From positions 3,013-67,012 of the forward strand of contig JAGBGU010000047.1 in NCBI GenBank assembly GCA_017935785.1: a stretch of DNA of 64,000 nt. Direction: 5' to 3'. This document shows positions 9,572 through 64,000 of this stretch, in pieces. A program made the position numbers and the translations under genes. The notes under the pieces are model-generated. The model worked only from the letters and a program-made list of their open reading frames with translations, was not told the DNA's origin and searched no databases. The DNA comes from Bacteroidaceae bacterium (GTDB lineage: Bacteria; Bacteroidota; Bacteroidia; Bacteroidales; Bacteroidaceae). Every line of letters starts with the position of its first letter. Position 1 is the stretch's first letter.

Positions 9572-10044
9572 AACTTCTGGGGATTAAATTGTTTCTTGAT
9601 TGCATTGATGGTGTGCGAGAGATGCTTCCATACCGCCACCTTGCTGATACCCTCGGCCAGAGCTATCTCCTCGTAAGTGTACCCTTCGGTAAAACGCAGG
9701 CGGAAGATGCGCTGTTCCTGGAGCGACAGGCGCGCCACCACAAACTCCACAATGTCCGTCAGCCGCTCGTCCCCGGCATCGCCGTCGTCGCAAAGCCCGG
9801 CCGCCGCACTCCTTATTATATCTATATGGCGCAGCCGTTTAAGGCACCGGTTGCGTACGCTTGTCAGCAGATAGCGTTCCTCAGCACCGGGTATCAGCGT
9901 AATGCGGCCATGGAGCAGTTGCTCGAAGATGTCGCTGACCACATCCTCGCTCTCCTGCACATCGTACAACAGGGTGCGCGCCACCCGTTGCATCTTGGCG
10001 TAGTGCTGTCTGAACAGCTGTTGTACCGTCTCTCGTTCCATCAC
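9568..10044 (-). CDS. ECF (sigma-70 family) RNA polymerase sigma factor
   Basis: 158 aa with region 2 (FRQHYAKMQRVARTLLYDVQESEDVVSDIFEQL) and a region 4 HTH (LSLQEQRIFRLRFTEGYTYEEIALAEGISKVAVWKHL). Confidence 0.85.
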   Translation of the reverse strand: MMERETVQQLFRQHYAKMQRVARTLLYDVQESEDVVSDIFEQLLHGRITLIPGAEERYLLTSVRNRCLKRLRHIDIIRSAAAGLCDDGDAGDERLTDIVEFVVARLSLQEQRIFRLRFTEGYTYEEIALAEGISKVAVWKHLSHTINAIKKQFNPQKL

Positions 10045-10368
10045 ATTTCTCTGACTTTCGTCGTCTCTCTTTTTATCTAATACCCTTCAGACGGAGAAAT
10101 CGCTAACCCGAAACGGAAGTTTTTTGCTCTTGCCATGTTTTTTCCCATTTTTCTTACATTATTATATATAACGGAATTCCACTCCGATTATTTTCGCTTT
10201 CCAGGGAAATGACAAACAAGTCCCACTGCCATTGGGAATCTTCTATACGTATTTGCCTTAATTAAGGGGATTTTAAGCCCCTCAAACAAGTCTATCAGAC
10301 AAAAACAGAAAACCCGTGCTAGCTTTGATTATCAACGTATTGCATTTACAATTCTGTCTCATTGAAAT

Positions 10369-10456
10369 GTAAACGGATTTACCCTTAAGTGTAAGTGGAT
10401 TTACATAGTGAGGTAAGTGCGTTTACATAGAACGGTAAATCCACTTACATAGTGAT
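10369..10456. repeat. four iteron-like 22-bp units, each starting with a GTAA-N6-TTAC palindromic site
   Basis: GTAAACGGATTTAC (10369), GTAAGTGGATTTAC (10391), GTAAGTGCGTTTAC (10413) and GTAAATCCACTTAC (10435) are spaced exactly 22 nt apart. Sites 2 and 4 are perfect reverse complements of each other. Confidence 0.85.
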
Positions 10457-10597
10457 GTAAAAATCGGCCGTCTGAAGAGCAACTTTTGCGGCAACATTAA
10501 GAAGCTGCTTAAATTTCTAAAAAGCTTTGTATTGGATAACCGTTTATTTCAAATCGCACACTTTATCAAAGTAAATTTTCTTTACAAAGTACATTCC

Positions 10598-10753
10598 CTA
10601 TAATTCAATCTCTTTAAAAAGATACATCGTCTCTCCCTTTTGAATGGCAAAACTTTCAAACAGCATCTTTGCTATTTGTTCAAAACGTTCTTCGATGTCA
10701 GATGCATTCATAGAGGCATCAAGAGTCATTAGCTGTCGGAGTTGTTCTATCAT
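10598..10753 (-). CDS. small hypothetical ORF (51 aa), possibly a gene fragment
   Basis: Hand-translated as MIEQLRQLMTLDASMNASDIEERFEQIAKMLFESFAIQKGETMYLFKEIEL*. It lies 29 nt downstream of the nuclease-like gene in the AT-rich islet and is too short for the ORF track. Confidence 0.25.
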   Translation of the reverse strand: MIEQLRQLMTLDASMNASDIEERFEQIAKMLFESFAIQKGETMYLFKEIEL

Positions 10754-10782
10754 TTGTATATTGTCATAATCTTAGTGTTACA

Positions 10783-11787
10783 CTAATCAAATCCAAAATA
10801 TACTTTCTTGTACCAACTTGACCAATCAGGCAAATAAGCAACCGCATTGTCAACAAGTACATTAGATTTAAAGTCATAGAACTTGGAAGAATTGTTAGTC
10901 AGTTGTCGATAGTCATTCATCGTCTTGTCAAGGAAAGAATTTTCGGGATGAGTGACCACCGAAAAATAGACTTCTTTAAATACTCTTCTATCTTCAAGTT
11001 CCAAAGCAAGCAACTGATTCCTCCAAAGTTGGTTCATGCCACCTCTGAATGGGCAACCATCATTTACATATTTACCAGAGAAGAACGAGTACTGTCTTTC
11101 CATGTTTTTCCAATAATAGTAGCCACAATGTTTGTGGTAATAACACTTGTCGTGATTATTTAGCAATTCTTTTATGCCACAAGATGTACAATTGGCTTCC
11201 TCAAATTTGGAAATACCTTTTGAACGATAGCCTCCACAAGTTGTAAATTCCCGTTCAGTTAACTTGTGTTCTATAAGCCAAAGGCAGAGTTCATTGTCAA
11301 AATTTCGATATGCAATGGCAACATCTGAATCTGTTCCTGCATGAGGGCTATGGTCACCAAGAAGGCCTTTGGAACCTTCCAATGAAGATTCCCAATACTC
11401 AAAGCAATAACCCTTACGAAATTGGTTTCTATCAACATGGTCAAAACCTGTAGGAGCAACTCCTGACACTTTTAATATCTTATCAGCATACTCGCTCTCC
11501 AATATTGGCACAAAAAGATTAATGCATGCAGTTTGAGAACTTGCCACATGCATAGAAGCTGCAAGATGTGGTTTATAGGCGAACTTGCTTTTTTGAATAT
11601 CTACTACTGTTGACTTAATATTCTCATAGAGCATAACTGGTATTTTTGCATCACAATATGGCTTAGGAAACAAACAATCGTGCTCAACACCTCTATTTGA
11701 AATCCCTTTACCCTTAATTTTAAGAACATCTTCTTTATACTTAATCAGGTACGAATAAACCCTCTGCTGAAAATCTCGATAAGACAT
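10783..11787 (-). CDS. hypothetical protein, PD-(D/E)xK nuclease-like (restriction-endonuclease-like) with a Cys-rich insert
   Basis: 334 aa with a candidate D...(E)xK signature (GTDSDVAIAY ... LWLIEHKLTE) followed by Cys clusters (TTCGG, CTSCG, CYYHKHCGYYYW, GCPF). It sits in an AT-rich islet with no adjacent methyltransferase. Confidence 0.35.
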   Translation of the reverse strand: MSYRDFQQRVYSYLIKYKEDVLKIKGKGISNRGVEHDCLFPKPYCDAKIPVMLYENIKSTVVDIQKSKFAYKPHLAASMHVASSQTACINLFVPILESEYADKILKVSGVAPTGFDHVDRNQFRKGYCFEYWESSLEGSKGLLGDHSPHAGTDSDVAIAYRNFDNELCLWLIEHKLTEREFTTCGGYRSKGISKFEEANCTSCGIKELLNNHDKCYYHKHCGYYYWKNMERQYSFFSGKYVNDGCPFRGGMNQLWRNQLLALELEDRRVFKEVYFSVVTHPENSFLDKTMNDYRQLTNNSSKFYDFKSNVLVDNAVAYLPDWSSWYKKVYFGFD

Positions 11788-12008
11788 AAACAGTATGTTT
11801 TATTATGAATTAAAAATACCTTGTCATTTCCCAACCTCATCCTGCGGCTTCTATGGCTTCTACTTCTCCTTTTGCTTCAAATTGAGCTAGTTACATAGTA
11901 CAGATAGGTAATTCTTGAAGTTTTCAATTTCATAGTCATCCCATTCGGGCTGTCCAAAGTCGACACTTACAAGCTCTCCATATCTATATTTGTTTTTCCA
12001 ACCTTTCC

Positions 12009-38482: not shown

Positions 38483-39328
38483 TTATGAATTAACAAGCAA
38501 CATATAGATCGTAACTGCAGGGATGGCCAGCAGACTGCTGTCAAAACGGTCCAGCATGCCTCCGTGTCCGGGAAGCACATTGCCGCTGTCCTTTATGCCC
38601 AGCTGGCGTTTCAGCATACTCTCCACCAGGTCGCCCCAAGTGCCGAAAAGCACCACTACCAGGGCAAAGCCTATCCACTTGGGCAGAGAAAGCAGACCCG
38701 GGAAGAAATGGGATACTGTCACGGCCGCAGCCACAGTCAGCAATCCGCCGCCGATACTGCCCACCCACGATTTGTTGGGCGAGATACGGGGAAACAGCTT
38801 GGCTGTAAAATACTTGCGGAGCGAGCAGCCGAACAGGTAGGCACCCGTGTCATTGACCCAAATAAAAAGGAACAGCGCCATAGGATAAATTTCCTCGTAC
38901 ACACAACGGCCGTTCTCGTCATACACCACACTCATCATGGGCAAAAGTGCAAAAGGCAAAGCCACATAGAGCTGAGAGGCAAAGATTAGCGACCAGTTTT
39001 TGAGCGGATCTGCAGCCTTGCGATACAGTTCACTGACGAGCAAATAGAGCAACAACAGGCCATATAGGGCAAAAGCCTCGCGCGTACCGCTTCCGCCCAC
39101 CAGCCAAAGCCATACAGAAGAGGTAAGCAGCATTCCGGCAAAGGCATTGAGATAAGGAACCAGCGAAGCACCGTAATGACGGTTCATCAGAGTGCTGAAC
39201 TCCCATAAAGTAGCCATGGTTACGACGGCAAAAAACAAGTATGCCGATACTGGCCCATAGAGGGTACATCCAGCCAAAAGTACCACATATATAGCCCCGG
39301 TAAGGGCTCTGACTATAAAATTCTTCAT
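38483..39328 (-). CDS. cdsA: phosphatidate cytidylyltransferase
   Basis: 281 aa with the CdsA signature SMLKRQLGIKDSGNVLPGHGGMLDRFDS. Confidence 0.9.
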   Translation of the reverse strand: MKNFIVRALTGAIYVVLLAGCTLYGPVSAYLFFAVVTMATLWEFSTLMNRHYGASLVPYLNAFAGMLLTSSVWLWLVGGSGTREAFALYGLLLLYLLVSELYRKAADPLKNWSLIFASQLYVALPFALLPMMSVVYDENGRCVYEEIYPMALFLFIWVNDTGAYLFGCSLRKYFTAKLFPRISPNKSWVGSIGGGLLTVAAAVTVSHFFPGLLSLPKWIGFALVVVLFGTWGDLVESMLKRQLGIKDSGNVLPGHGGMLDRFDSSLLAIPAVTIYMLLVNS

Positions 39329-41313
39329 GCTTCTTCCGATTCTATGTTCTTTTCATTATCGTTTATCATTTCCGCAGCCCCCTGGTTCTCCTCCGTTGCA
39401 AGCAGTTCCTCTGTACGGCTGGTCCAGGGACGAGGGCCGAAAATTTCCTCAACATCCTCTGCAAAGACCACCTCGCGCTCTACCAGACGCTCAGCCAGCT
39501 GGGCGTGCTGTTCGCGGTGTTCGTTCAGGATACGGCAGGCACGGTCGTACTGTTCCGCTATCATTTTCTTCACATCCTCGTCTATGAGCTGTGCGGTAGT
39601 CTCGGAATAAGGACGGTGGAAGGCATACTCGTCCGTGTTGTAATAGCAGAGATTCTGCAAGCCCTCACCCATTCCCATATAGGCAATCATGCCATACGCC
39701 TGCTTGGTCACACGCTCCAGGTCGTTCATGGCACCGCTGCTGATATGTCCGGTACAAATCTGTTCGGCAGCCCTTCCGGCCAATGTGGCGCACATCTCAT
39801 CAAGCATCTGCTCGCGGGTGGTAATCTGCCGTTCCTCAGGCAGATACCATGCAGCTCCCAAGGCGCGTCCCCTGGGGACTATGGTAACCTTCACCAGCGG
39901 ATTGGCATATTGCAACAGCCAGCTGATGGCGGCATGGCCGGCTTCATGAAGGGCTATGGTTTTCTTCTCCTCTGCTGTCATAACCTTGGTCTTCTTCTCC
40001 AGACCTCCTATGATACGGTCCACCGCAGCCAGGAAATCCTCACGGCTCACATGCGTTTTATTGTGACGGGCCGCAATCAGTGCAGCCTCATTACATACAT
40101 TGGCTATGTCGGCACCGCTGAAGCCCGGTGTCTGTCGTGCCAAAAAATCTATATCAAGCGAACTGTCTGCCTTGATGGGACGCAGATGCACCTGGAAAAT
40201 TTCCTTACGCTCGTTCAAATCGGGCAGATCCACATATATCTGACGGTCGAAACGTCCCGCACGCAACAGCGCCTTGTCCAGCACATCCGCACGGTTGGTG
40301 GCAGCCAGAATAATCACTCCGCTGTTGGTGCCGAATCCGTCCATTTCGGTGAGCAACTGGTTCAGCGTACTCTCGCGCTCATCATTTCCGCCCATGGCAG
40401 AACCCTTTGAGCGGGCACGTCCCACGGCATCAATCTCGTCGATGAATATGATACAGGGACTCTTCTCCTTTGCCTGTCGGAAGAGGTCGCGCACACGACT
40501 GGCTCCCACGCCCACAAACATTTCCACAAAGTCGGAACCGGACATGGAGAAGAAGGGTACGTCCGCTTCGCCGGCAACAGCCTTGGCCAGAAGGGTCTTA
40601 CCCGTTCCCGGAGGGCCCACCAGCAATGCGCCTTTGGGTATCTTACCTCCCAGTTCCGTAAACTTCTTGGGATTCTTCAGAAACTCTACTATCTCCTGCA
40701 CTTCCTGCTTGGCACCGGCCTGACCCGCTACATCGGCAAACGTCACACGCCCCACCTGATCCTTCTCTACCAGTCTGGCGCGACTCTTCCCCACGTTAAA
40801 TATACCCATGGGACCGCCGCCGGAGCCTCCGCCGCCCATTCGGCGCATTACCAGCATCCACATTACCAGGATAAAAATCAGAGGTCCGAAGCTCCATAAG
40901 AAATTGCCGAACATGCTGCTGTTCTTCTTATAGGTGATGTCGCCGTTGAAGTTGCCCAAATCCTGCTGGTCGGCCAGAAACTCGTCCAGCTTGTCGTTGG
41001 AAGGATACTGGGTTTCCACATAAGGAACCTTTCCCTTTTCCACGGGCACGTTCTTGAACACATCGCGTATGTGTTCCGCATTTACGTACATTTGCAGCTC
41101 TCCATCGTCCTTGTTGGCTATGATACGCTGCGCATATCCGCTTTCCACATACGTCTTGAACTCGCCGTATGCCACAAGTTTGCTGCTTCCGCCCATTACA
41201 ACGGTAGCATTGTCACTGGTGAGCACCAGATAGCCCAATACGGCCGCAATAATCACATAAATCCATGTCAGATTTATCTTGGGCCCGTTATTCTTCTTGT
41301 TATTTTCTTCCAT
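39325..41313 (-). CDS. ftsH: ATP-dependent zinc metalloprotease FtsH
   Basis: 662 aa with an N-terminal TM, Walker [19 protein letters not shown], Walker [10 protein letters not shown] and the zinc motif HEAGHA. Confidence 0.95.
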
Positions 41314-41874: not shown

Positions 41875-41945
41875 TGGGCTATGGTGTAATGGTAACACTG
41901 CAGATTCTGGTCCTGCCTTTCCTGGTTCGAGTCCGGGTAGCCCAA
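41875..41945 (+). tRNA. tRNA-Gln (anticodon CTG)
   Basis: Folded by hand into a 71-nt cloverleaf. Acceptor TGGGCTA/TAGCCCA has the U1-A72 pair typical of bacterial tRNA-Gln. D stem is GTGT/ACAC, anticodon stem GCAGA/CCTGC, loop TT-CTG-GT, and T arm CCTGG-TTCGAGT-CCGGG. Confidence 0.8.
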
Positions 41946-42002
41946 CCTCTTAAAGCGCAGGCAAGCGTTGGGCTGGAGCCCCCTTGCAGAGACACAAACG
42001 AT

Positions 42003-42073
42003 TGGGCTATGGTGTAATGGTAACACTGCAGATTCTGGTCCTGCCTTTCCTGGTTCGAGTCCGGGTAGCCCAA
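42003..42073 (+). tRNA. tRNA-Gln (anticodon CTG), identical second copy
   Basis: Identical 71-nt sequence, 57 nt downstream of the first copy. Confidence 0.8.
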
Positions 42074-42077
42074 CAAA

Positions 42078-48649: not shown

Positions 48650-49648
48650 ATGACAAGTTACAAGGAATTGGGTCTGGTGAACACCCGTGAAATGTTTGCC
48701 AAGGCAGTAGCCGGCGGTTATGCCATCCCCGCTTTCAACTTCAACAACATGGAGCAGATGCAGGCTATCATCTCTGCCGCTGTAGAGACCAACTCTCCCG
48801 TTATCCTGCAGGTATCTAAGGGTGCCCGTCAGTATGCCAATGCCACTCTGCTGCGCTACATGGCTCAGGGTGCTGTTGAATACGCAAAGGAACTGGGTTG
48901 CCAGAATCCTCAGATTGTACTGCACCTGGACCACGGTGACACCTTCGAAACCTGCAAGAGCTGTATCGACTCTGGTTTCTCTTCAGTGATGATCGACGGT
49001 TCTCACCTCCCCTACGAAGAGAACGTTGCCCTCACCAAGAAGGTTGTTGAATATGCTCATCAGTTCGATGTAACCGTTGAAGGCGAGCTGGGTGTATTGG
49101 CTGGCGTTGAGGATGAAGTTTCTTCAGACCACCACACCTATACCGACCCCGAAGAAGTAATCGACTTCGCTACCCGTACCGGATGCGATTCACTGGCCAT
49201 CTCTATCGGTACCAGCCACGGTGCTTACAAGTTCACTCCCGAGCAGTGCACCATCGATCCCGCTACCGGCCGCATGGTTCCTCCTCCATTGGCTTTCGAC
49301 GTTCTGAAGGCTGTTGAAGAGAAGCTCCCCGGATTCCCCATCGTACTGCACGGTTCTTCTTCAGTTCCCCAGGACGAGGTTGAGACCATCAACAAGTTCG
49401 GCGGTGCCCTGAAGGCTGCCATCGGTATCCCCGAAGAGTGGTTGCGCGAGGCTGCAAAGAGCGCTGTTTGCAAGATCAACATCGACTCTGACTCTCGTCT
49501 GGCCATGACCGCTGCTATCCGTCAGACCTTCGCCGAGAAGCCCGCTGAGTTCGACCCCCGCAAGTATCTGGGTCCCGCTCGCGACAACATGAAGAAGCTG
49601 TACACCCACAAGATTATCAACGTGCTCGGTTCTAACGACAAGTTATAA
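48650..49648 (+). CDS. fba: class II fructose-1,6-bisphosphate aldolase
   Basis: 332 aa with typical class II FBA segments (YAIPAFNFNNMEQMQAII, LHLDHG, HGSSSVP). Confidence 0.9.
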   Translation: MTSYKELGLVNTREMFAKAVAGGYAIPAFNFNNMEQMQAIISAAVETNSPVILQVSKGARQYANATLLRYMAQGAVEYAKELGCQNPQIVLHLDHGDTFETCKSCIDSGFSSVMIDGSHLPYEENVALTKKVVEYAHQFDVTVEGELGVLAGVEDEVSSDHHTYTDPEEVIDFATRTGCDSLAISIGTSHGAYKFTPEQCTIDPATGRMVPPPLAFDVLKAVEEKLPGFPIVLHGSSSVPQDEVETINKFGGALKAAIGIPEEWLREAAKSAVCKINIDSDSRLAMTAAIRQTFAEKPAEFDPRKYLGPARDNMKKLYTHKIINVLGSNDKL

Positions 49649-49684: not shown

Positions 49685-49731
49685 ACCCTCGCAACAATCC
49701 TCACACGGATTTTGCGAGGGTTTTCTTTTTT
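49685..49731 (+). terminator. rho-independent terminator after fba; marks the core/island boundary
   Basis: AACCCTCGCAA-N16-TTGCGAGGGTT followed by ttcttttttg. Confidence 0.75.
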
Positions 49732-49750
49732 GTCAAGCCAAATAGGACTA

Positions 49751-49943
49751 AAGGGATGTCCTAAAAATTATGTCGTGTTGATTTACGTTCTATTTTCGTG
49801 TGTGCTTTTGTAAGTTGAAGAAGGAGCATAGCGGGCTATGTGACTGATGAGATTTGACAAAATGACACCATAAGAGACGAAAAGCGGCCGAAACCGAGAA
49901 CACCAGAATAGGTAAAAACTTAAATCCTGGATTTTTAGAACAT
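49751..49943. repeat. 193-bp repeat, copy 1 (direct repeat of 50981..51173), with ~9-bp terminal inverted repeats
   Basis: Near-identical blocks (ctaaaaattatgtcg..tcgtgtgtgcttttgtaagttgaagaa.gagcatagcgggctatgtgactgatgaga.ttgacaaaatgac..aaaagcggccgaaac.gagaaca.cagaat.g.taaaaacttaaatcc.g.atttttagaaca). Termini are CTAAAAAT / ATTTTTAG. Confidence 0.85.
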
Positions 49944-50015
49944 CTCTTATGCCTTTTAATGTTAAAAACACAAAAGAAAAGCACAACTATCAGTTGTATT
50001 ACAGAAATTATTTAC

Positions 50016-50033: not shown

Positions 50034-50597
50034 ATGGAATGCCATATGAAATTCGATAGAATTCTCGACAATAACACTTTATGGGCTGTACGATACAACG
50101 GAGCCAAGGACAATGCCCTTCAGACTTTGTTTGAACAATGGAGCGACCCAGAATGGTTGGTTGATTTCTTCATTAAAAACATCTCCGACCTTGCGTCATA
50201 CTTCAAGATTACAGACATCAACCAAGCCATCTATGATACGATTGAAGACAACCAAAGGATGCAATGTTTAATACTTGACATCTCTCCCGATGCTGATCTT
50301 GACCAACTTTTCAGACCTTTGGAGAATAGTCGGATTAATGAAATACTTCTTGGTAAGGAAAAAGCTAGGATTAAGAATCGCCCACAACACACATCATGGC
50401 TTCGTATCTATGCGATTAAACTTGAACCAGGATGTTACATAATCACTGGAGGCGCCATCAAACTGACCAGAACCATGCAGGAAAGGGAACATACGTTGGA
50501 AGAACTCAGAAAAATGGAAACCGTACGTCACTTCCTTTTGGAAAGTGGAGCGATAGACGCAGATGGATTTACAGATTTCTTATCAGAAATTCAATAA
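50034..50597 (+). CDS. hypothetical protein; putative RelE/HigB-like toxin core with a long N-terminal extension
   Basis: 187 aa. The C-terminal segment WLRIYAIKLEPGCYIITGGAIKLT resembles RelE/ParE-superfamily toxin cores. It lies directly upstream of an XRE-HTH gene, which is the HigBA gene order. Confidence 0.4.
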   Translation: MECHMKFDRILDNNTLWAVRYNGAKDNALQTLFEQWSDPEWLVDFFIKNISDLASYFKITDINQAIYDTIEDNQRMQCLILDISPDADLDQLFRPLENSRINEILLGKEKARIKNRPQHTSWLRIYAIKLEPGCYIITGGAIKLTRTMQEREHTLEELRKMETVRHFLLESGAIDADGFTDFLSEIQ

Positions 50598-50610
50598 AGG
50601 AAGAAACATT

Positions 50611-50952
50611 ATGAAACAAAAAACGCTTGAATTCCTTGAAACGCACAAGAGCGAAACTTCCTCAACCTGGAGGAAGGAAGCAGAATGGAGACGTGAAAAT
50701 TGGTCATGGCTCCGCCATTCCCAGATGATTGCTGTAAAGGTTCTGCTCCAGATGAAACTGCTTGGGCTGACACAAAAAGCGCTTGCAGATCGAATGAACT
50801 GTACGCAACAATATGTTTCAAAAATCCTGAAAGGACGGGAAAACATGTCTCTTGATACCCTATCCAAACTTGAGGATGCGCTTGGCATCAACCTGATTTA
50901 TGACGAGCAGACAACCTATCCAACCATAGTTGCGGAAGAAGAGCTTGTATAA
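50611..50952 (+). CDS. XRE-family helix-turn-helix protein (putative HigA-like antitoxin/regulator)
   Basis: Start at MKQKTLEF (ATG 50611). HTH segment: LGLTQKALADRMNCTQQYVSKILKGRENMSLDTLSKLEDALG. Confidence 0.7.
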   Translation: MKQKTLEFLETHKSETSSTWRKEAEWRRENWSWLRHSQMIAVKVLLQMKLLGLTQKALADRMNCTQQYVSKILKGRENMSLDTLSKLEDALGINLIYDEQTTYPTIVAEEELV

Positions 50953-52348: not shown

Positions 52349-53008
52349 TTACTTTGCCTCATAAATTCGGAAAGGCATTACCCACATCCCGTTATCCAAA
52401 TAAAACGAAGGAGCCATACTTTCGCTTCCTCTCCATTTGAATATATGATTTTTACTTTCTTCTAATGTCAGCAATGTTTCATATTTATTGAATTCATCCA
52501 AATTGACTTTTACATTATCAAAAAGAAAAAAATAGTTTCCTGCTTTCAATGAAAAGTCATACCCGGTAGTCAGCCACCATTCATGCTGCTCTTGGGGATT
52601 AGTTCTGAATCTCCATGGTTTGAATTTATCTATATCAATAGGATTGGGATTCCCCACCTCATACAAAGAAATCCTAACATATCCTTTTCCCGTCTTTGTT
52701 TCTGAAAAATGAATGGTTTGCAGAAAGTGGTCACATTCGCAACCATACGCCTTTCCTGTAGATTCTTTCAAAACTTTCGGGAAGTCATCCAGTTCACGTG
52801 TAAGAAGAACTTTATCTTCATCTGAACGATAGAACAGATGTATTGCCTCAAACATGAAGGGCTTGTTGAATATTTTGGGCGGGATATTATATAGGATTCC
52901 ATCTATTGGATATGGGAACAACTCAACTGTTGCAGTCTTTCTCTCATATTTATCGGTCTTCCAATTATACGGAAGATTTTCTTTTTCTTTATACTTCATG
53001 TTAACCAA
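52349..53008 (-). CDS. hypothetical protein, translationally coupled to the radical-SAM maturase
   Basis: 219 aa with no TM and no signal peptide. Its start overlaps the maturase stop by 8 nt. Confidence 0.5.
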   Translation of the reverse strand: MVNMKYKEKENLPYNWKTDKYERKTATVELFPYPIDGILYNIPPKIFNKPFMFEAIHLFYRSDEDKVLLTRELDDFPKVLKESTGKAYGCECDHFLQTIHFSETKTGKGYVRISLYEVGNPNPIDIDKFKPWRFRTNPQEQHEWWLTTGYDFSLKAGNYFFLFDNVKVNLDEFNKYETLLTLEESKNHIFKWRGSESMAPSFYLDNGMWVMPFRIYEAK

Positions 53009-54113
53009 TGGAGCAATTATTTGTTTCTGTATGGGTTATTATTCTTTTTGCTGCAGCAAGCTCCAGATATTCCTCCTGACTAATCTCTGCTACATCTTTC
53101 CTTAAAATTTGTTTTATTCTGTAATAACTTAGAGCTTCTTTTTCTGCCATTATAAAAGGGCACAACCTCTTGTCTCTTTTTCCAATAGAACCTCTCTCAA
53201 TAAAATTATTCCCATAGCATGTTGGACAAATATTGTGGATCAAACACTTTTTACATGAGACGTCATCGTAAAGGGAGTCTTCATTTTCAAAATCCAGATT
53301 TGAGATATCATTCCAACGTTTTTTATCAAGCGTGTTGGGGATAAACATTTGGCACGGATATGCATTACCTTCGACATCAAACGCCATCATGTTTTTTCCT
53401 GTTCCGCAATGTCTGACTATAATATCCTTCTCCAATATAGGGGTAAGATGTTTACTGAAAATCGGTATTGTCTCCACATCTGGGTTTTGTAGGTAGAAAT
53501 CAGCTAATTTAAATAACTCATTGCGATAGGTTTCCACTTGTGTATTTTCCCATTCTAATCCGTAAGCTAAATTTGCATTAACTTTTAGCCCATATGAATG
53601 AATATACTTCACACCTTCAGCAAAGCCAGAAAGAGTTTCTTTCGAGACTGTCATTTTTACTGGTTGTTCCGGCCACAAATCACAAAAGAAGCGAATTGTA
53701 TCCTCAGACAATCTTGTTCCTCTGTTTTGATAGTTCATTTCCAATGTTCCATCCAAACTCAAGGCTGCAGCAAAACGTTTTTTGTTTTCTGTTAACCATT
53801 CTTTTACTTCTTGAGTCAATATAGTTCCATTGGTGGTGGCAAAGAACTTTATCGTATACGAGGGAAATTCATTCCAGCACCATTCGCACAATTCTCGGAT
53901 TAATTGAAAGTTCATAAATGGTTCTCCACCATGAAAATCAATCTCCAAATCTTCATTCCCATGTAGTTTTATTCTCTCCCTTATAATTCGTTGTGCAGTG
54001 GAAATGTGCATACGCCGCAAATCTTTACTTCCTTCATAGCAATATATACACTTCAAATTACATTGGTTTGTAATGGTCAGCATTAAACAAAATCGTTTCA
54101 TAATAAATAGCAA
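53001..54113 (-). CDS. radical SAM / SPASM-domain peptide maturase
   Basis: 370 aa with the N-terminal CxxxCxxC motif (TNQCNLKCIYCYEG). The C-terminal auxiliary-cluster region has HCGTGKNMMAFDVEGNAYPCQMF and CKKCLIHNICPTCYGNNF (Cx2Cx5Cx2C), then RLCPF. Confidence 0.8.
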   Translation of the reverse strand: MLFIMKRFCLMLTITNQCNLKCIYCYEGSKDLRRMHISTAQRIIRERIKLHGNEDLEIDFHGGEPFMNFQLIRELCEWCWNEFPSYTIKFFATTNGTILTQEVKEWLTENKKRFAAALSLDGTLEMNYQNRGTRLSEDTIRFFCDLWPEQPVKMTVSKETLSGFAEGVKYIHSYGLKVNANLAYGLEWENTQVETYRNELFKLADFYLQNPDVETIPIFSKHLTPILEKDIIVRHCGTGKNMMAFDVEGNAYPCQMFIPNTLDKKRWNDISNLDFENEDSLYDDVSCKKCLIHNICPTCYGNNFIERGSIGKRDKRLCPFIMAEKEALSYYRIKQILRKDVAEISQEEYLELAAAKRIITHTETNNCSIG

Positions 54114-54179
54114 TTTAGGATTTCTTTGTTTAAGTTATCCGAAAAATGGCCCAGAACAGTCTGAACAATTATCGGAATC

Positions 54180-54347
54180 TTAAGAGTCAATCATAGCCAT
54201 TGTCCCTTTGCAAAAATTGCATTCATCGCCGCCAGAAGTATAAGCACAACCACTTTCTGGATGTAAAGTTTCGTTCTTTTCCTGTACGTCATCTACAGCC
54301 CCGTATTTAATTCCCAAATCATCCAATACTTTATTCAATTTTTCCAT
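54180..54347 (-). CDS. candidate RiPP precursor peptide 2 (55 aa, not in ORF track)
   Basis: Hand-translated as MEKLNKVLDDLGIKYGAVDDVQEKNETLHPESGCAYTSGGDECNFCKGTMAMIDS*. It shares leader and core motifs with the peptide at 54440..54604. Confidence 0.55.
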   Translation of the reverse strand: MEKLNKVLDDLGIKYGAVDDVQEKNETLHPESGCAYTSGGDECNFCKGTMAMIDS

Positions 54348-54392
54348 ATCCTCAATATAAGTATTAATACGACAAACACTTTAAACTTAAAA

Positions 54393-54432
54393 CTGGTGTT
54401 GTGCCAAATTCCAAAAAGAAGCACAACACCAG
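54393..54432 (-). terminator. 12-bp perfect hairpin + T-run between the two precursor genes (possible attenuator/partial terminator)
   Basis: On the minus strand: CTGGTGTTGTGC-16 nt-GCACAACACCAG followed by TTTTAAGTTT. It starts 8 nt after the stop of precursor 1. Confidence 0.6.
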
Positions 54433-54439
54433 TAATTAA

Positions 54440-54604
54440 TTATCCAAACATGCCACCTTTACAACGTTCGCATTCATCGTCACCAAACATTGCTCCGGTA
54501 CATTTGTCGCATGGAGAATAATTAGCTTTCACAGAACCTAAAACCTCATTTACTTTGCCATACTTTCCTTCAAGCAAATTCAATGTCAAATTTAAGTCTT
54601 TCAT
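54440..54604 (-). CDS. candidate RiPP precursor peptide 1 (54 aa, not in ORF track)
   Basis: Hand-translated as MKDLNLTLNLLEGKYGKVNEVLGSVKANYSPCDKCTGAMFGDDECERCKGGMFG*. Confidence 0.55.
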   Translation of the reverse strand: MKDLNLTLNLLEGKYGKVNEVLGSVKANYSPCDKCTGAMFGDDECERCKGGMFG

Positions 54605-54667: not shown

Positions 54668-55411
54668 TTATTTTCCTGTTCTTAATGCTGTTATTTCATT
54701 CTTTACACGTGAAATATCCGCAGATGCATCAACGCCATATTTCTGAGACTCTTGATAATACAGGATTGACCGGGAGAGCATGGTAACAGCCCATTCATTC
54801 ACTTTTTTTTGGTTCTTCTTTCTCGACACATCCGGCACATCCTGTGCAAATTTCTCAAATTCACTGGCTGCCTGATACAACAATGTAGCTTGTGCCTTTA
54901 CTGCTTTCTTCAATTGTTCTTCCTGGGCACTTAACTGTTGTCCTTGTTGTTCAATGGTTGACTTCTGTTCTGTGATAGTCGTATTCTGACTTTCGATTAT
55001 TTCCTTAAGTGAATTGATTTCCGCTTCTTTTTCTTTAATAATTGTCTTCAGGTTTGCCACAATTTTCTTATAAGCACTATCGTTTCCTATCTGCTTTTCT
55101 AAGGTTGAAATCTTATTTTTGATGGCCTTGATGTTATTACTTATTTGTTCTGCTTGCGTTACGCGCGCTGTACCATTTTCAATGTCCCCGCGCAATACCA
55201 TTGTACTTCCTGATATTTGGGCCAACTCGCTAAGCGTTTTGTTTATGGTTGCTGCTTGATTCAAATTTGACTGTTGAGTGGCATCAAGTGATTCTTTCAG
55301 TTCTTTATATTCATTGTATATTTCGTCATATTCCTCTTGGGGAACACCTCCACCGCAAGACCATAACAATCCTGCCAATACTAACAAACTTATTACTTTG
55401 TTAATTCGCAT
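54668..55411 (-). CDS. coiled-coil lipoprotein
   Basis: 247 aa with the lipoprotein signal MRINKVISLLVLAGLLWSCGG. The rest is Q/E/K-rich with heptad character. Its start overlaps the upstream gene by 19 nt. Confidence 0.6.
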   Translation of the reverse strand: MRINKVISLLVLAGLLWSCGGGVPQEEYDEIYNEYKELKESLDATQQSNLNQAATINKTLSELAQISGSTMVLRGDIENGTARVTQAEQISNNIKAIKNKISTLEKQIGNDSAYKKIVANLKTIIKEKEAEINSLKEIIESQNTTITEQKSTIEQQGQQLSAQEEQLKKAVKAQATLLYQAASEFEKFAQDVPDVSRKKNQKKVNEWAVTMLSRSILYYQESQKYGVDASADISRVKNEITALRTGK

Positions 55412-56682
55412 ATTCTTTCTCCTTGTTTAAATGTTAATGTTATTTTATCTAATTTCTCATTATATGTGATTTCTCCTTTCCCCAGTTGTTCTGATTCTAT
55501 ACTTCCACTCGCATCCAGCGAAAATTCATATATTTCCGGACCATATTCGGAAACCACCAATATCCGAGCTTGAATATCTGATGTTTTCTTTATGGCAGCA
55601 GTACGAATACCGTTAACTAAGACACCGGCATTCTTTTCGCGTAGTGTATAATTACCCTCAAGTCGACTTATCGCAGTGGAAAGATTCACCTCTGTTTTTA
55701 CAGGTTCCCCAACATTCTTATTATTACTATCAGATTTGCCGAAAGTAAAATAAAGGAATGCCATTAATATAGCAGCACCTACCCATGTATACCATTGTTT
55801 GTACCATGGGGTTCCTTTTGTCTTGGAACCTCCCGCATTTGGCAATGGATTCTCTATTGGCGTCTGTCTTTCATCTTCCGTGGATGATGTGGGAGGCAAA
55901 ATAGGAGTTGATTCTATAGAGGGCTTTAGACTGATTTCAAATGTTGTTTTATATAAACAATTTTCACCTTCATAGAATTCCACTCTCCAGGTACCAGATG
56001 CCTCATAACAGTTTTTGTCCGTGTTTCCAAAACCGTCTAAAATTGCTGTTTGCTTCACCATTGTGCTACATTGAACACTTCCTTTCCAAGTGAACCCTGT
56101 TTTAGAACCTTCTATTGAAAGCAACTCACCTTCAGGAGAATAAATCTTATACCAAATATCTATAGGATCTCCTGTCCGAAGAACTTGATACGTAATTTGT
56201 GGAATCAAATACTCTACATCAGTATAAAGTTTACTGCCAAAATTTCTTATGGTATTTCCGTTTCTATCTGAGTCTCCAAATTTTACATCTATAATTTCAA
56301 TAGCTGCATTTTTTATTATAACAAAATGTTTAAGTGAACCATGTTCGTCTTCTTGTAACAATGTTTCTATAAAATCTTTGTATTTAGATTCGTCAACTAC
56401 CATTATTCTTTTAGCAAACAGACTCGCAGCGTCTTTAACATCTAATTTTTCGCCAGAAGCATTGTACTCTTGGGTTACTTCTATCAGTTTATTACAAGTA
56501 TCCTCAATATCCTCTCTTTTAGGAAAATCAGCTGACAATTGATTAATTATCTCACTTACAAGTTGATTTATGTCGGAATATGTGTTTTTATTTTCTTCTG
56601 AACTTGAAATGATTTTTGCCAAAAAATCTAGGTCCTTTATACATTGTCTTACTTTTAACTTTAGTACATCTTCAACAGCCAT
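55393..56682 (-). CDS. single-pass membrane protein, unknown function
   Basis: 429 aa. One TM segment (WYTWVGAAILMAFLYFTFG, around aa 300) sits between a ~290-aa N-terminal domain and a ~110-aa C-terminal domain. Confidence 0.55.
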   Translation of the reverse strand: MAVEDVLKLKVRQCIKDLDFLAKIISSSEENKNTYSDINQLVSEIINQLSADFPKREDIEDTCNKLIEVTQEYNASGEKLDVKDAASLFAKRIMVVDESKYKDFIETLLQEDEHGSLKHFVIIKNAAIEIIDVKFGDSDRNGNTIRNFGSKLYTDVEYLIPQITYQVLRTGDPIDIWYKIYSPEGELLSIEGSKTGFTWKGSVQCSTMVKQTAILDGFGNTDKNCYEASGTWRVEFYEGENCLYKTTFEISLKPSIESTPILPPTSSTEDERQTPIENPLPNAGGSKTKGTPWYKQWYTWVGAAILMAFLYFTFGKSDSNNKNVGEPVKTEVNLSTAISRLEGNYTLREKNAGVLVNGIRTAAIKKTSDIQARILVVSEYGPEIYEFSLDASGSIESEQLGKGEITYNEKLDKITLTFKQGERICELTK

Positions 56683-60113: not shown

Positions 60114-63100
60114 TTAAATTTCCAATTGTGCAAACAATTGTCGTATATCAGTTATCAGGCGAACTTGAACTTGTTCAAAACCGCCCTGTAAAAGACCTAT
60201 CACTTGATAGTTGTCCTGACGGACGACAGGGCCTCCGCTATTTCCATGCGTGGCGTTTATATCCGACATATAAGTATCAAAGCTTCTGTCGTTATTTTGC
60301 TTGTTTGCTTCATAATTAGTGATTTCACCAGAGTTGACCATCAGATTACGGGATACGGCTTCTCCCAAAGGGTATCCTGCCAATGTAATCTTCGTGGTTT
60401 TTCCTACGGGTTTCTCATCTTTACATAATTGTAGATAACGGGCTTCCTGTGGCAATATACCCACTTGAAGCAATGCCATATCGTATTGGGGATTGTTCCA
60501 CAGCAGGCGTGCAGTCGTTTCAAACTGAAGTTCACTAATACTAAAGGTAAACTTAGTTTTCCCTTCCACCACATGACTGCATGTAAGCAGATAATGGTTA
60601 TGAAGTGAAATGATGAACGCTGTTCCTTGGGCCTTTTCTGAATTGGTTCCACCCTCACAAGTCAGTAATCCAACAGAATGTTCAAGGTGCTCAACGCATG
60701 TTGCCCTATGTGCTTCGTCCTCCTTTGTCAAATCCAAAGAGACCATAGGCTGCTCAGCACCGTTTCCGGATGCTTCTACCCTATCCTCCAACGATTGTCC
60801 TTCGGAACCTTTGTGCAAATTCAAAACCTCATAGGCTGCTTTTGGGAAATCCTCAGGTCTGTATTCATTCATAAGATCAGTGGATTCATTATTCGCAGCA
60901 CGCAATCGTTTGTCATTATTCTGTTCCAAAATGCCTAACAATTTTTCACTTTCGCTGGCATTGCCGAACTTATTGGTACGAGGAATCAAACCAAACCAAG
61001 CTAAAGCCAATTGGTGACATAATTCCTCGTCAACAAAATGTCGTTTCAGCCTTCTCATGTTAAACTGCAGAATTTGCCATAGCTCTTCATTTGAATAATT
61101 GTCGAATTGGATTATATGTTTCACCCTGCGCGTCATACCGTCATTCATACTTAAAAACTGGGACATATCATCAGGATAACCGGCCAAAACAAGCGCCATT
61201 TTTCGTTTATATCTTTCATCGGTCAGCAATCCTACAATTTGGGTTACTACACTTTTATTGTTATTTTCACAAAGAGCGTATGCTTCATCGATGAATAGAG
61301 TTTTTCCCACATTGTCAGCAAACAATTTTTCAACATTCTTTTCTGTTCCACCTGCGAAATTATCAACAATGTCTCCCTTCTTTTTTTCTACACAATCACC
61401 GCTCGTCAGTAAGCCCAAGTCATGAAGAATACCGCCCAGCATTCTGGCCACTGTGGTTTTACCCGTTCCAGGAGAACCGGCAAAAACGAACACCAAGTCT
61501 TCTTCTTCAACAGGCAGGCCGGCATTCATTCTAAGTCGGTCACGCCTCATTTTGTAATAGATTTCTTTCAGTTTCTCTTTTACATTTCTCAAGCCGATAA
61601 GTTCATGGAGATTTTGAAGCACTTCTTCATCTGTTTTCTCTTTAGTGTCAATCATCTTGCTGAACATTTCCGGAATATGCGAAAGTTCCAATGTTCCATT
61701 GTTTTTTTTGTAAAATTCCTTGTAGATTTGAGCTGCAAGTTGCTCCATTTCTCTGGCATTACCCCAAGTACGAAGATTACGTTGGGCAAACATTACTTCT
61801 ACGAGCATACGTATAGCATTGCTGAATTCATCAGTCTTTGGATACGTCAGTTTGCGATTCAACATTTTTAGCAGTTCAGATGGTTCATAGTCGTCAAACA
61901 TGATAAGTTGGTCATCGTTGATTCGGCTCCGAAGGCCTGGATTACTATTCGTCAGAAGATCCTCCATCTCATGCTTATAACCAGCCAATACCAACATAAA
62001 GTCTGGTTTTGTCATATATTGTATCAAGACTTCAACAGCCTCGGCCGCATAGTTTGCGCCATGCCCTGTTTTATCTTCACGCAATCCATAAGCTTCATCA
62101 ATGAAAAGCATGCCCCCTTTGGCCCTTTCACATAAAGCTTGTGCCTTAATACGTGTTTCTCCGACGTATTGGCCGACAATGTCACCTACTGTCGCCGAGA
62201 TAAATGTTCCCTTACTCAGTACATTTTCTTCGCGGAACCATTGGGCTACCAGTCTTGCTACAGTTGTTTTGCCCGTCCCCGGATTTCCCATAAATACCAT
62301 ATGAGGGTACACCGGTATTGCACTATGTCCTGTTTCTTCCTTTTGTCGACGAGTGTTAACAATAAGATTCTTAAGACTTTCTATCTTATCCAGAACTTTT
62401 CCAATCCCGTCCATTTGTCTTAATTGGGACAAAGCATTATCTGCGCTGACTGTACTTACCAAATGATTCATGTCTAATCTGTTTAAGTTTATTATCAGTC
62501 TGTCATCCATCTTGGCAAAATCAAGTCCACCGTCTTTACCAAACACTTTAAAATTCCCCATGGCAACACTTCGTCTTAACAAGCCAAAAGGCTTTGGCGA
62601 TAACGTACAATCAACATTCTCACAGATACGTTTTCGGATAAGCCAATTTGCGATTTCGTCTTCTTGCGGCAAGTCTATGCAAAACAGGTTCTTTTCAAAA
62701 TTAACCATGTTCACATCACGTTCTGTATAGTTTTGTTGGCTTGAAGGCGCCAAGCCAAAACGAGTAGCAAAAGAGTTTCTAAAAAACACTCCACCTTGTC
62801 CACCATGTTCATGGTCAAATGCCGCTGCCAATTGTCCGTTCGTCTTGAATCCGAAAAGCACAATCATCTTTAGCTGCCGGTTTTCCTCACCATACACCTT
62901 TGACAACTCGCTGAATTTATTTTCAACTTGTGCAGGGTTTTCTGGAAGTATGTTTTCCGGATTTTCAAATATAACCGCCATTCGTTCATGGGGATTATTG
63001 TCAGAAAAACCTATCACGTCATCAAAAACAGTCAAAGAAGATTGTCTTTTAAAAAAGGTGTTCAAACCATTCTTATGTATATATATCTGAGGATAATGGC

Positions 63101-63593
63101 AGACCAACGAAGTGGAATTACCGTCATGTGACGCGTCGGATGAAGAACCATGGGTTGGGCTTAAAGGCGGTCTGCCGCCTTTCGTATTATTTACTTGATT
63201 TCGGGCTCCAAACCGAGGCTTCATTGCCCCCATCGGGGTCTTTATCTTTGGCACGTAAGATGTGTGTTCACCTTGACGCACATAACTACCGCTTGTCTGC
63301 AAGTTCTCATTTGTTTGTGCCTGATTTGTTTTTGGTGAGTGTGAAGCATTTGTAAAACCTGAAAATACAGCCAAGTCTTCTTCTGTATAGCTGTAAAATC
63401 CGATATTATCAGTCGGATTGTAGAAAACCACACGGTATCCTTCTCCCTTCAGGTATAAGAAAAGAGCCTTTGATATGTTATAGCGACAAAGATCGCCATC
63501 TATAAAATACTCTGAATTACGCGTATTTCCATAGATTCCCGAGAGCAAGCCTCGGTGAGAAACATTGAAATCTGATATACGTCTTACAGCCAT
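60114..63593 (-). CDS. giant fusion protein: unknown N-terminal ~400 aa + two SpoVK/CbxX-type AAA+ modules + C-terminal trypsin-like (S1) serine protease domain
   Basis: 1159 aa. AAA-1 has GNPGTGKTTVARLVAQWF and GMLFIDEAYGL..VLAGY. AAA-2 has GSPGTGKTTVARMLGGIL and TLFIDEAYAL..VLAGY. The protease triad context is LLTCSHVV (His), YDMALLQV (Asp) and THGNSGGPV (Ser). Confidence 0.8.
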   Translation of the reverse strand: MAVRRISDFNVSHRGLLSGIYGNTRNSEYFIDGDLCRYNISKALFLYLKGEGYRVVFYNPTDNIGFYSYTEEDLAVFSGFTNASHSPKTNQAQTNENLQTSGSYVRQGEHTSYVPKIKTPMGAMKPRFGARNQVNNTKGGRPPLSPTHGSSSDASHDGNSTSLVCHYPQIYIHKNGLNTFFKRQSSLTVFDDVIGFSDNNPHERMAVIFENPENILPENPAQVENKFSELSKVYGEENRQLKMIVLFGFKTNGQLAAAFDHEHGGQGGVFFRNSFATRFGLAPSSQQNYTERDVNMVNFEKNLFCIDLPQEDEIANWLIRKRICENVDCTLSPKPFGLLRRSVAMGNFKVFGKDGGLDFAKMDDRLIINLNRLDMNHLVSTVSADNALSQLRQMDGIGKVLDKIESLKNLIVNTRRQKEETGHSAIPVYPHMVFMGNPGTGKTTVARLVAQWFREENVLSKGTFISATVGDIVGQYVGETRIKAQALCERAKGGMLFIDEAYGLREDKTGHGANYAAEAVEVLIQYMTKPDFMLVLAGYKHEMEDLLTNSNPGLRSRINDDQLIMFDDYEPSELLKMLNRKLTYPKTDEFSNAIRMLVEVMFAQRNLRTWGNAREMEQLAAQIYKEFYKKNNGTLELSHIPEMFSKMIDTKEKTDEEVLQNLHELIGLRNVKEKLKEIYYKMRRDRLRMNAGLPVEEEDLVFVFAGSPGTGKTTVARMLGGILHDLGLLTSGDCVEKKKGDIVDNFAGGTEKNVEKLFADNVGKTLFIDEAYALCENNNKSVVTQIVGLLTDERYKRKMALVLAGYPDDMSQFLSMNDGMTRRVKHIIQFDNYSNEELWQILQFNMRRLKRHFVDEELCHQLALAWFGLIPRTNKFGNASESEKLLGILEQNNDKRLRAANNESTDLMNEYRPEDFPKAAYEVLNLHKGSEGQSLEDRVEASGNGAEQPMVSLDLTKEDEAHRATCVEHLEHSVGLLTCEGGTNSEKAQGTAFIISLHNHYLLTCSHVVEGKTKFTFSISELQFETTARLLWNNPQYDMALLQVGILPQEARYLQLCKDEKPVGKTTKITLAGYPLGEAVSRNLMVNSGEITNYEANKQNNDRSFDTYMSDINATHGNSGGPVVRQDNYQVIGLLQGGFEQVQVRLITDIRQLFAQLEI

Positions 63594-63612: not shown

Positions 63613-64000
63613 CTAAAGAGAACCACGAAGCTGATTGGCAGCACCGCGTTTTCGCATTTGCTGTCCTGACTGCATTTGGGGTATTACCTCATTGCCTCCA
63701 TTGGCAGGAGTCGTTATCGGACCTGGATCATAGCCGCTCCTACGCATTTCCTGACGTATGCGTTCAATACTCTGGCGCAATTGTTGTTCAGTAATCGCTT
63801 GGTAGGGATTATCTACATGTATGGCAATATCGTTTGATTTCTCATCCGGATTAGGCTGTAACACAACCGTAATCTCCTCGCCGGTATTAGGATGACGAAG
63901 AATGGCAAAAACACCCTCTCGTTGGTCACTTTCTATTTGGCCTCCCATATAGTCGAAATCGTCATTACCATTTTCAACCTTTATCTCATATCCCTGCCGA
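63613..64000 (-). CDS. hypothetical protein, first visible gene of the operon; reading frame open to the window edge
   Basis: The ORF track gives 111 aa from the Met at 63948. The frame upstream (..RQGYEIKVENGNDDFDY-MGGQIESD..) has no stop up to position 64000, so the true start may lie outside the window. Confidence 0.45.
   Translation of the reverse strand, partial: RQGYEIKVENGNDDFDYMGGQIESDQREGVFAILRHPNTGEEITVVLQPNPDEKSNDIAIHVDNPYQAITEQQLRQSIERIRQEMRRSGYDPGPITTPANGGNEVIPQMQSGQQMRKRGAANQLRGSL

Follow-up and report, generated by a model that had tools for sequence, protein, structure and literature searches.

A tandem CbbX-type AAA+ ATPase joined to a predicted trypsin-like protease in a candidate conflict-system operon of a Bacteroidaceae bacterium

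Among NTP-dependent conflict systems, the accessible parts of the survey by Kaur, Burroughs, Iyer & Aravind 2020 distinguish MoxR-vWA, FtsH-type and GTPase-Hsp70-GrpE forms, and TerY-P is, in the passages that cite Gao 2020 (PMC11090510, PMC7699616), a stand-alone anti-phage system. A further described protein of related type, the SpoVK component of CoCoNuT type III-A, has an inactive first module and leucine-rich-repeat (LRR) plus biotin-carrier-like C-termini, and is encoded between vWA genes in McrBC operons. Here we analyze a 64,000-nucleotide (nt) stretch of contig JAGBGU010000047.1 from a Bacteroidaceae bacterium (GCA_017935785.1; positions 3,013 to 67,012, hereafter the window), near whose right end a single gene encodes a family-specific N-terminal domain, two AAA+ modules and a C-terminal protease domain in one polypeptide (the fusion; Table 1). 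Our best explanation, which we hold at a probability of roughly 0.55, is that the fusion serves as the ATPase-effector subunit at the center of a multi-gene conflict system that is accessory, moves horizontally and has an ATP-gated protease effector. We infer this function, most likely an anti-phage one, from the features described below, and our confidence in each single mechanistic step is much less, well under that in the conflict-system reading as a whole.

Domains and modules were identified with Pfam, NCBIfam, PADLOC v2, PDB sequences, Foldseek (PDB and viral libraries), AlphaFold2 and hhalign. We compared ten distinct loci, with fusion identity from 96% to 32%, plus one effector-less member, and followed catalytic residues in an alignment of 28 full-length homologs at 31-96% identity. 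The initial annotation, made from the DNA letters, had proposed the single-polypeptide architecture, and every motif that it quoted is present in the open reading frame (ORF). Walker A motifs occur at aa 436-447 (GNPGTGKTTVAR) and 706-717 (GSPGTGKTTVAR), Walker B motifs at aa 496-504 (LFIDEAYGL) and 766-774 (LFIDEAYAL), and VLAGY at aa 535-539 and 802-806. Pfam AAA (PF00004) matches two stretches of the protein (E=1.4e-25), NCBIfam returns SpoVK (E=1.6e-90), CbbX (1.5e-80) and EccA (1.9e-77), and PDB sequence matches include CbbX (3zuh, E=9e-35, aa 386-617) and EccA1 (9lur, E=5.8e-28), which bears out the proposal of two complete modules of this flavor. CbbX is the red-type Rubisco activase. 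These matches place both modules in the CbbX/SpoVK/EccA clade of classical AAA+ ATPases, and D1 and D2 are duplicates of each other (hhalign E=2.5e-62).

Both AAA+ modules look catalytically intact and active from their residues. The Walker residues K442, K712, D499/E500 and D769/E770 are invariant in the 28 sequences, as are N551 and R557 of D1 (NPGLRSR) and N817 of D2, and at least 90% of them retain R823 of D2. Within the D1 pore loop QYVG, at least 90% of sequences share Y476 and all share G478, and the motif extends to QYVGET in alignment with the "gqyight" pore loop (QYIG) of CbbX; the corresponding D2 position (NFAG) shows no conservation across the family. Full-length relatives reached down to about 30% identity in the first homology search, and some relatives of ~1,680 aa carry four AAA modules; one of these relatives (P0021) has the same N-domain from residue 1. 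Scores nevertheless fall below the NCBIfam equivalog cutoffs (SpoVK 302.7 < 422.95; CbbX 270.5 < 459.25; EccA 261.1 < 466.65), and no sporulation genes, Rubisco operon or ESX/type VII secretion genes were found in the window or in 10 related loci. Given these scores and the wrong gene context, the fusion is not an orthologue of SpoVK, CbbX or EccA.

The C-terminal domain, which the initial annotation had called a chymotrypsin-fold protease, is matched by Trypsin_2 in Pfam (PF13365; E=5.4e-19, aa 990-1134, 69.8 bits vs. a cutoff of 27.6) and by HtrA in the PDB sequence search (aa 976-1138). Its sequence contexts TCSHVV (aa 1004-1009), DMALLQV (1038-1044) and GNSGGPV (1117-1123) place a triad of H1007, D1038 and S1119 in that order, invariant in the 28 homologs down to 31% identity, and we predict a PA-clan S1/chymotrypsin-fold peptidase with its triad intact. 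The initial annotation had named absent AAA+ or S1 profile support, or missing catalytic residues, as grounds for abandoning its reading; both kinds of profile match were obtained, and the residues are invariant in the 28 sequences. The closest PADLOC profiles of the protease are defense-associated, namely RT-Protease_XI (2.5e-21) and the LmuA and HamA protease domains.

In an effector census, 97 N-domain proteins of at least 800 aa were classified with local hidden Markov models (HMMs). Their C-terminal tails are a trypsin domain in 37, nothing after the last AAA module in ~45 and other sequences in ~15, and the other tails that were sampled are a PIN nuclease (PF13638, 1e-5 to 1e-6), NB-ARC/STAND plus TPR arrays or an unknown helical domain. 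The suggestion that an ATPase is hard-wired to a protease holds for the window protein but not for the family as a whole: the protease is an optional effector and not the family's defining part, because only 37/97 full-length members have it, and it sits in a swappable C-terminal effector slot, since relatives carry PIN, NB-ARC plus TPR or nothing there. Swappable C-terminal effectors are a pattern typical of conflict systems.

No Pfam, NCBIfam or PADLOC match covers aa 1-385, as the initial annotation had found for the N-terminal ~400 aa by eye, and a PDB-sequence profile search was also empty. In the family, residues R5, R14, G22, Y53, S68, L74, P120, F209 and E313 are invariant, and a low-complexity insert of variable length interrupts the conserved domain (low-complexity stretches at aa 90-102 and 139-160 in the window protein). 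An exhaustive HMM search found 179 clusters of this family among 1.84 billion representatives (114 at E<=1e-10), and the domain starts at residue 1 in every match. Because of this rarity and this fixed start, the N-domain is a rare signature of the family. Structure prediction followed by Foldseek, one of the checks proposed in the initial annotation, gave a confident AlphaFold2 model (23-sequence alignment, pLDDT 77.4, pTM 0.78, disorder at 83-109 and 130-160) with nothing at E<=1e-3 in the PDB and viral libraries. Its sub-threshold PDB fold matches are almost all AAA+ proteins (Rpt, Msp1, p97, Vps4, FtsH, RFC, ORC), and a weak match to the RFC large subunit came from the viral library (E=1.6e-3). 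The order of strands and helices in the model is compatible with an AAA+ core and lid from which the Walker A lysine is absent, and hhalign comparison with the fusion's own AAA1, AAA2 and protease profiles was not significant (E=0.1-0.34 for the AAA modules). As a lead from the model, the N-domain may be a degenerate, P-loop-less AAA+-like module. The sensor role that the initial annotation had suggested for this region is a conjecture.

The modules encoded 3′ of the fusion are interchangeable. Genes for vWA, PP2C phosphatase and kinase proteins follow the fusion core in L007 (88% fusion identity), L010 (96%), L001, L002 and L004, and are identified by PADLOC as TerY (4.1e-14), PP2C (1.9e-21) and STK_OB (3.8e-34). 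The window, L006 (70%) and L009 (35%, four AAA modules) instead have a ~290-306-aa protein and Hsp70 at this position, so that downstream modules differ from those of the window even at 96% and 88% fusion identity. The window keeps a remnant of a TerY-P-type locus, made up of the C-terminal region of the kinase protein and the shared lipoprotein. Residues 270-429 of its 429-aa protein are 70% identical to the C-terminus of the 497-aa STK protein of L007 and also match L010 (tblastn), and its lipoprotein, which overlaps the preceding gene by 19 nt, shares 73% identity with the gene that closes the L007 operon. Since the kinase-protein C-terminus is kept and the lipoprotein is shared, GrpE, Hsp70 and a new N-terminal region have taken over, at the same site, from TerY, PP2C and the kinase domain. 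The initial annotation had imagined regulated proteolysis of a host or invader target, and such a setting would fit the TerY-P linkage, the effector swap and the defense-island loci.

Both neighbors on which the initial annotation had drawn, the MORN protein and Hsp70, are real. Hsp70 has nucleotide-binding and beta substrate-binding domains without the C-terminal helical lid, and contains the motifs DLGTT, NEPTAA and DLGGGTFD. The 306-aa protein encoded beside it is, in its window copy alone, below Pfam detection as GrpE, and a PDB-sequence search with it was also negative; PF01025 is matched by 12/26 of its family members (best E=2.5e-8). Its AlphaFold2 model consists of one long helix and a C-terminal beta domain, and the Foldseek PDB top-10 are all GrpE/GrpEL1 (probability about 0.6-1.0, target-normalized TM up to 0.61). 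On the strength of the family's Pfam matches and these GrpE-only top fold matches, we assign it as a divergent GrpE. NCBI has a protein 100% identical to it, annotated from a "Bacteroidaceae bacterium" metagenome-assembled genome. The usual 3′ neighbor of the fusion is a zinc-ribbon/coiled-coil protein whose N-terminal ~60-130 aa are kept beside it in L010, L007, L001, L009, L002/3 and L006, and the MORN C-terminus is specific to the window's locus type. Spacings from Z, the gene directly 5′ of the fusion, through to the lipoprotein gene are 19, 21, 4, 6, 31 and -19 nt, and genes this tightly spaced indicate one transcription unit.

A specialized proteostasis or envelope-stress protease, acting with Hsp70 in Lon/FtsH-like host quality control and with no part in conflict, would also join an AAA+ module and a protease in one chain, and the co-encoded Hsp70 and GrpE-fold factor, the membrane-anchored protein and the lipoprotein would all suit it. 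We consider it rather improbable, given that the family is extremely rare and patchy, its operon lies in an island of low guanine-plus-cytosine (GC) content, near-identical copies already differ in whether they carry the Hsp70 module or a TerY-P triad, most members do without the protease, and a canonical FtsH is already encoded in the same window.

Table 1 Features of the window (nt positions within the 64,000-nt stretch; D1 and D2, first and second AAA+ modules)
Feature	Position	Strand	Remarks
Fusion gene	60114..63593	-	single ORF, 1159 aa
Family-specific N-domain	62439..63593	-	aa 1-385; variable disordered insert aa ~83-160
AAA+ module D1, CbbX/SpoVK/EccA type	61644..62438	-	aa 386-650
AAA+ module D2, AAA_lid_6-type lid	60789..61643	-	aa 651-935
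Low-complexity linker, D2 to protease	60669..60788	-	aa 936-975; length variable, conservation poor in alignment
Predicted trypsin-like (PA clan, S1-fold) serine protease domain	60114..60668 (incl. stop codon)	-	aa 976-1159
Z, C-terminal 128 aa	63613..64000	-	cut at window edge; listed as 111-aa ORF 63613..63948
Zinc-ribbon, coiled-coil and MORN-repeat protein, 310 aa	59160..60092	-	Pfam MORN 3.6e-16, zinc-ribbon matches
Divergent GrpE-type nucleotide-exchange factor, 306 aa	58235..59155	-	family Pfam matches and fold search
Hsp70/DnaK-family ATPase, 504 aa	56714..58228	-	Pfam HSP70 1.7e-95, profile positions 1-516 of 599
429-aa protein, transmembrane-like segment ~aa 296-314	55393..56682	-	C-terminal ~160 aa homologous to TerY-P-type kinase protein C-terminus
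Coiled-coil lipoprotein, LLWSC lipobox, 247 aa	54668..55411	-	last gene of tight operon
Two paralogous Cys-rich ORFs, 54-55 aa	54440..54604 and 54180..54347	-	
PapB-family radical SAM/SPASM maturase	53001..54113	-	NCBIfam E=8e-41
219-aa protein	52349..53008	-	overlaps radical SAM/SPASM gene
Overlapping gene pair at island edge	50034..50952	+	187-aa protein, then 129-aa HTH_3 (XRE-type) protein
GC boundary	49700..50000		directly past class II fructose-bisphosphate aldolase gene (48650..49648)
Two tRNA-Gln(CTG) genes	41875..42074		8 kb away from GC junction
Canonical FtsH gene	39325..41313		same window

The left 50 kb of the window, at 50-60% GC, is ordinary Bacteroidota-type chromosome (GH92, DUF3256, DUF4922, FtsH, class II aldolase and the two tRNA-Gln genes), and the final 14 kb drop sharply, at ~50 kb, to 34-42% GC. 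No integrase or tRNA was seen at the GC junction. Two N-domain peptide patterns gave 48 pattern matches in 185,579 species-representative genomes, with no confirmed relatives, and an exact look-up of the fusion protein returned no record. The GC drop, the presence of only 179 clusters, the lack of confirmed relatives in those genomes and the differing downstream modules argue that the system is accessory. A cluster at 36% identity (P0060; locus L001, GCA_024712465.1) is annotated from Candidatus Methanomethylophilaceae (archaeal) metagenome-assembled genomes (MAGs), but the contig also encodes bacterial-looking transglycosylase, M23/LysM and PEGA proteins; because of these peptidoglycan-type genes the archaeal binning is uncertain, and L001 reflects either cross-domain transfer or a binning error.

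The island-like composition and rapid module shuffling would equally be expected of a selfish or offensive mobile-element module, serving addiction, inter-bacterial antagonism or anti-defense and turning proteolysis on proteins of the host or of competitors to the element's own advantage. The possible spread across bacteria and gut archaea MAGs points the same way, as does the gene pair at the island edge, which looks like a toxin-antitoxin or regulator pair formed by a helix-turn-helix protein and a 187-aa protein with no Pfam or PADLOC match. We nonetheless judge this reading very unlikely: neither the window nor the retrieved loci showed genes for conjugation, integration, secretion or phage structure, and linkage to TerY-P and Hhe/PDC genes favors defense, as some related loci are adjoined by an Hhe/PDC-S37 helicase (3.6e-292), PDC-S31 and PDC-S01.

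Some further features of these neighborhoods deserve record. Genes for Tubulin_2, FGE-sulfatase, WG_beta_rep, PEGA and LRR proteins recur 3′ of the operon (L008 13608..14586, L006 11759..15567, L001 16830..18666), a set that shares the vocabulary of the diversifying conflict systems in the portions of Kaur et al. 2020 available. Just 5′ of the operon in L004 (1..4695) are genes for two stand-alone AAA plus AAA_lid_6 (CbbX/SpoVK-type) proteins of 746 and 522 aa and a Peptidase_M64 gene. Within the window, a second low-GC patch at 10001..12000 (GC 0.365 vs. ~0.58 in its flanks) carries a Cys/His-rich 334-aa ORF (10783..11787, minus strand) beside an ECF-sigma-like ORF (9568..10044), and may be a further small inserted element.

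The window ends 407 bp 5′ of the fusion start codon, which is why the conserved partners encoded upstream (X, Y, a radical SAM protein and Z) were invisible to the initial annotation. Since its frame is open to base 64000, the listed 111-aa ORF is the C-terminus of a longer protein, Z. The fragment is 94.5% identical to the end of the 496-aa Z in sister contig L007 and also matches Z C-termini in L006, L008, L004/5 and L002/3; a homologue search with it matched a single fragment. Gene order in the loci is X, Y, radical SAM, Z and then the fusion. Z lies directly 5′ of the fusion in 10/10 distinct loci, and each of the 8 loci whose sequence reaches far enough also has Y and the NrdG-like radical SAM protein. 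X varies from 284 to 574 aa, Y is a helical protein of ~140 aa with no conserved Gly or Cys, and Z (454-537 aa) combines an N-terminal coiled coil with a conserved C-terminal alpha/beta domain and a conserved tail. In L002 (5749..7473), the C-terminal domain of X matches Pfam MIT_C (PLD-like, 4.9e-24) and the C-terminal region of PADLOC BrxL (4.7e-17), a type of match that is absent in the X proteins of close relatives.

The radical SAM protein (~190-212 aa) is the best-conserved member of this core, with CxxxCxxC (C35/C39/C42), GGEP and RGSxNQ invariant in 7 loci. It scores against NrdG (TIGR02491) at E=1e-26 to 1e-33, with 93.7-113.3 bits, below the 126.1 cutoff, and by these motifs resembles NrdG-type glycyl-radical activases. 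A glycyl-radical motif (RVxG[FWY]-like), as an activase partner would carry, is not conserved in Y or Z, and we rejected a role for either as glycyl-radical substrate for lack of a conserved Gly motif.

An NrdG-like radical SAM enzyme in every locus raises the alternative that the system matures ribosomally synthesized and post-translationally modified peptides (RiPPs), in which the protease would act on leader peptides and the AAA+ ring would unfold the peptides modified by neighboring radical SAM and YcaO enzymes or couple them to an exporter. RiPP-type genes do lie nearby. In the closest relatives, a radical SAM protein (455 aa), a PqqD-like protein, a 140-aa protein and YcaO (612-618 aa) are encoded directly 5′ of X (L007 1881..5769, L010 2..2271), and such a second, YcaO-type RiPP-like module may also lie beyond the right window edge. 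On the other side of the window's operon, 52349..54604 looks like a ranthipeptide/sactipeptide-type RiPP cluster by its gene content: two Cys-rich peptides, ending in SPCDKCTGAMFGDDECERCKGGMFG and GCAYTSGGDECNFCKGTMAMIDS, respectively, are encoded directly 5′ of the radical SAM/SPASM maturase gene, and both are called as genes in sister contig L013. Kaur et al. 2020, in the parts accessible, also describe peptide-processing modules attached to conflict systems. Yet the distant loci L001, L002, L004, L009 and L011 retain the core but have neither YcaO nor SPASM genes, the SPASM cluster lies 554 nt away from the operon, the swap of the protease for PIN, NB-ARC plus TPR or nothing is unlike a leader peptidase, and NrdG-like enzymes are protein-radical activases rather than typical RiPP maturases. 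Peptide maturation as the main role is, to us, quite improbable.

Returning to the conflict-system reading, we can outline how such a machine might work. By analogy with other classical AAA+ proteins, the fusion would assemble into a ring that holds a protein substrate by the CbbX-like pore loop of D1 (QYVG). Six protease domains, each on its flexible tether, could then cut this substrate or bystander proteins when the ring is activated. The switch would be provided by the interchangeable peptide-binding modules, Hsp70 with its own GrpE here and vWA under kinase/phosphatase control in the sister loci, both apparently linked to a membrane-anchored protein and to a lipoprotein through which the state of the envelope could be sensed. 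X, Y, Z and the radical SAM protein form an invariant upstream core, to which the radical SAM step would be essential. Among these, we favor Z as a candidate direct partner or substrate of the ring, given its tight coupling to the fusion gene and the conserved tail at its C-terminus. As a result, a target from the invader or the host would be proteolyzed, by which infection is stopped or dormancy or death is triggered.

Several points weigh against this reading. For every member of the family a conflict-system function is a prediction, and it does not account for the roles of the radical SAM protein, X, Y and Z. No integrase or classical defense gene was seen adjoining the operon within the window, the operon as a whole has no system-level match in PADLOC v2, and the TerY-P triad (TerY, PP2C and kinase domain) is absent from the window in Pfam and PADLOC searches. 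No operon protein has an HPD motif or a DnaJ Pfam match, and because no J-domain protein accompanies Hsp70 a canonical chaperone cycle is not certain. An S1 domain tethered by a flexible linker would not necessarily build a degradation chamber, so "unfold and degrade" would hold by analogy only, and the variable linker and the optional protease call for caution over a stacked ring of the Lon/FtsH type. Finally, the RiPP-type genes found 5′ in close relatives (YcaO, radical SAM, PqqD) and 3′ here (radical SAM/SPASM with Cys-rich peptides) leave room for peptide maturation.

If the operon is immune, it would supply a new effector machine, a tandem AAA+ ring with tethered trypsin-like proteases, and a new sensing principle, in which an Hsp70/GrpE pair devoted to the system and the TerY-P phospho-switch can be exchanged for one another. 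The exchange would also offer a handle on how TerY-P acts, as both modules should do the same job. The family's hosts are gut Bacteroidaceae and possibly gut methanogens, in which phage defense is poorly charted and anaerobic radical chemistry is feasible. A bolder proposal, which we think unlikely, is a new class of immune machine that brings together the first S1-based AAA+ protease, Hsp70-GrpE control interchangeable with vWA-kinase-phosphatase control, and radical modification of a core partner such as Z by the NrdG-like activase; were it true, chaperone occupancy would itself be the infection sensor, and oxygen-sensitive radical chemistry would be tied to anti-viral proteolysis in gut anaerobes. 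On a conservative reading, the locus defines a new protein family (N-domain, CbbX-type AAA array and swappable effector) with invariant partners and defined catalytic residues.

Full-text literature searches brought up no account of the fusion or the operon, a coverage outside which the original 2012 TerY-P paper falls, so that a passing mention there is possible; for a conflict system with an NrdG-like radical SAM enzyme in its core, too, no described precedent was found. The fusion modules share with CbbX, SpoVK and EccA the Walker A and B motifs, the QY[VI]G pore loop, NPGxxSR and the AAA_lid_6 lid, but differ in their tandem arrangement (fourfold in relatives), their own N-domain and the C-terminal protease. 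Like Lon and FtsH, the fusion joins an ATP-driven ring module and a peptidase in one polypeptide, which by analogy would imply ATP-coupled proteolysis; unlike them, its peptidase is an S1 domain (Trypsin_2) on a variable linker and not S16 or M41, and its family has two to four AAA modules with the peptidase optional. Membership of CoCoNuT type III-A as a SpoVK extension is rejected by differing architecture and context.

Among defense systems, IetAS, Lamassu, Hachiman and retron XI also pair an ATPase with a serine protease, and the AAA modules of the fusion match IetA weakly (45 bits), a resemblance at the level of the domain only, as are the protease matches to RT-Protease_XI, LmuA and HamA. 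IetS is a separately encoded subtilisin-like S8 protease, however, and all four systems are without the N-domain, tandem CbbX-type modules, radical SAM protein, Z, Hsp70 and TerY-P partners found here. The tie to TerY-P is one of neighborhood, in that sister loci with 88-96% identical fusion proteins carry the TerY/PP2C/STK triad directly 3′, whereas the known system stands alone with three genes and has neither an AAA+ protease nor a radical SAM enzyme. The ternary systems of Kaur et al. 2020, as far as the available parts of that work describe them, come close in combining a chaperone-type NTPase with a peptide-binding vWA or Hsp70/GrpE co-factor, in having swappable effectors that include trypsin-like peptidases, and in their attached radical SAM peptide modules. 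The ATPase of the fusion is of another AAA+ clade, and the core of NrdG-like radical SAM protein, X, Y and Z is not among the systems described in those parts. We rejected membership of the FtsH-type ternary or GTPase-Hsp70-GrpE systems on the grounds of this other ATPase clade and the absence of MoxR or a GTPase; SpoVK, CbbX and MORN have 0 occurrences in that paper. The best reading of the operon is therefore an NTPase-centered conflict system with a swappable effector, unusual in its S1-type AAA+ protease, its private Hsp70/GrpE pair and its NrdG-like radical SAM core.

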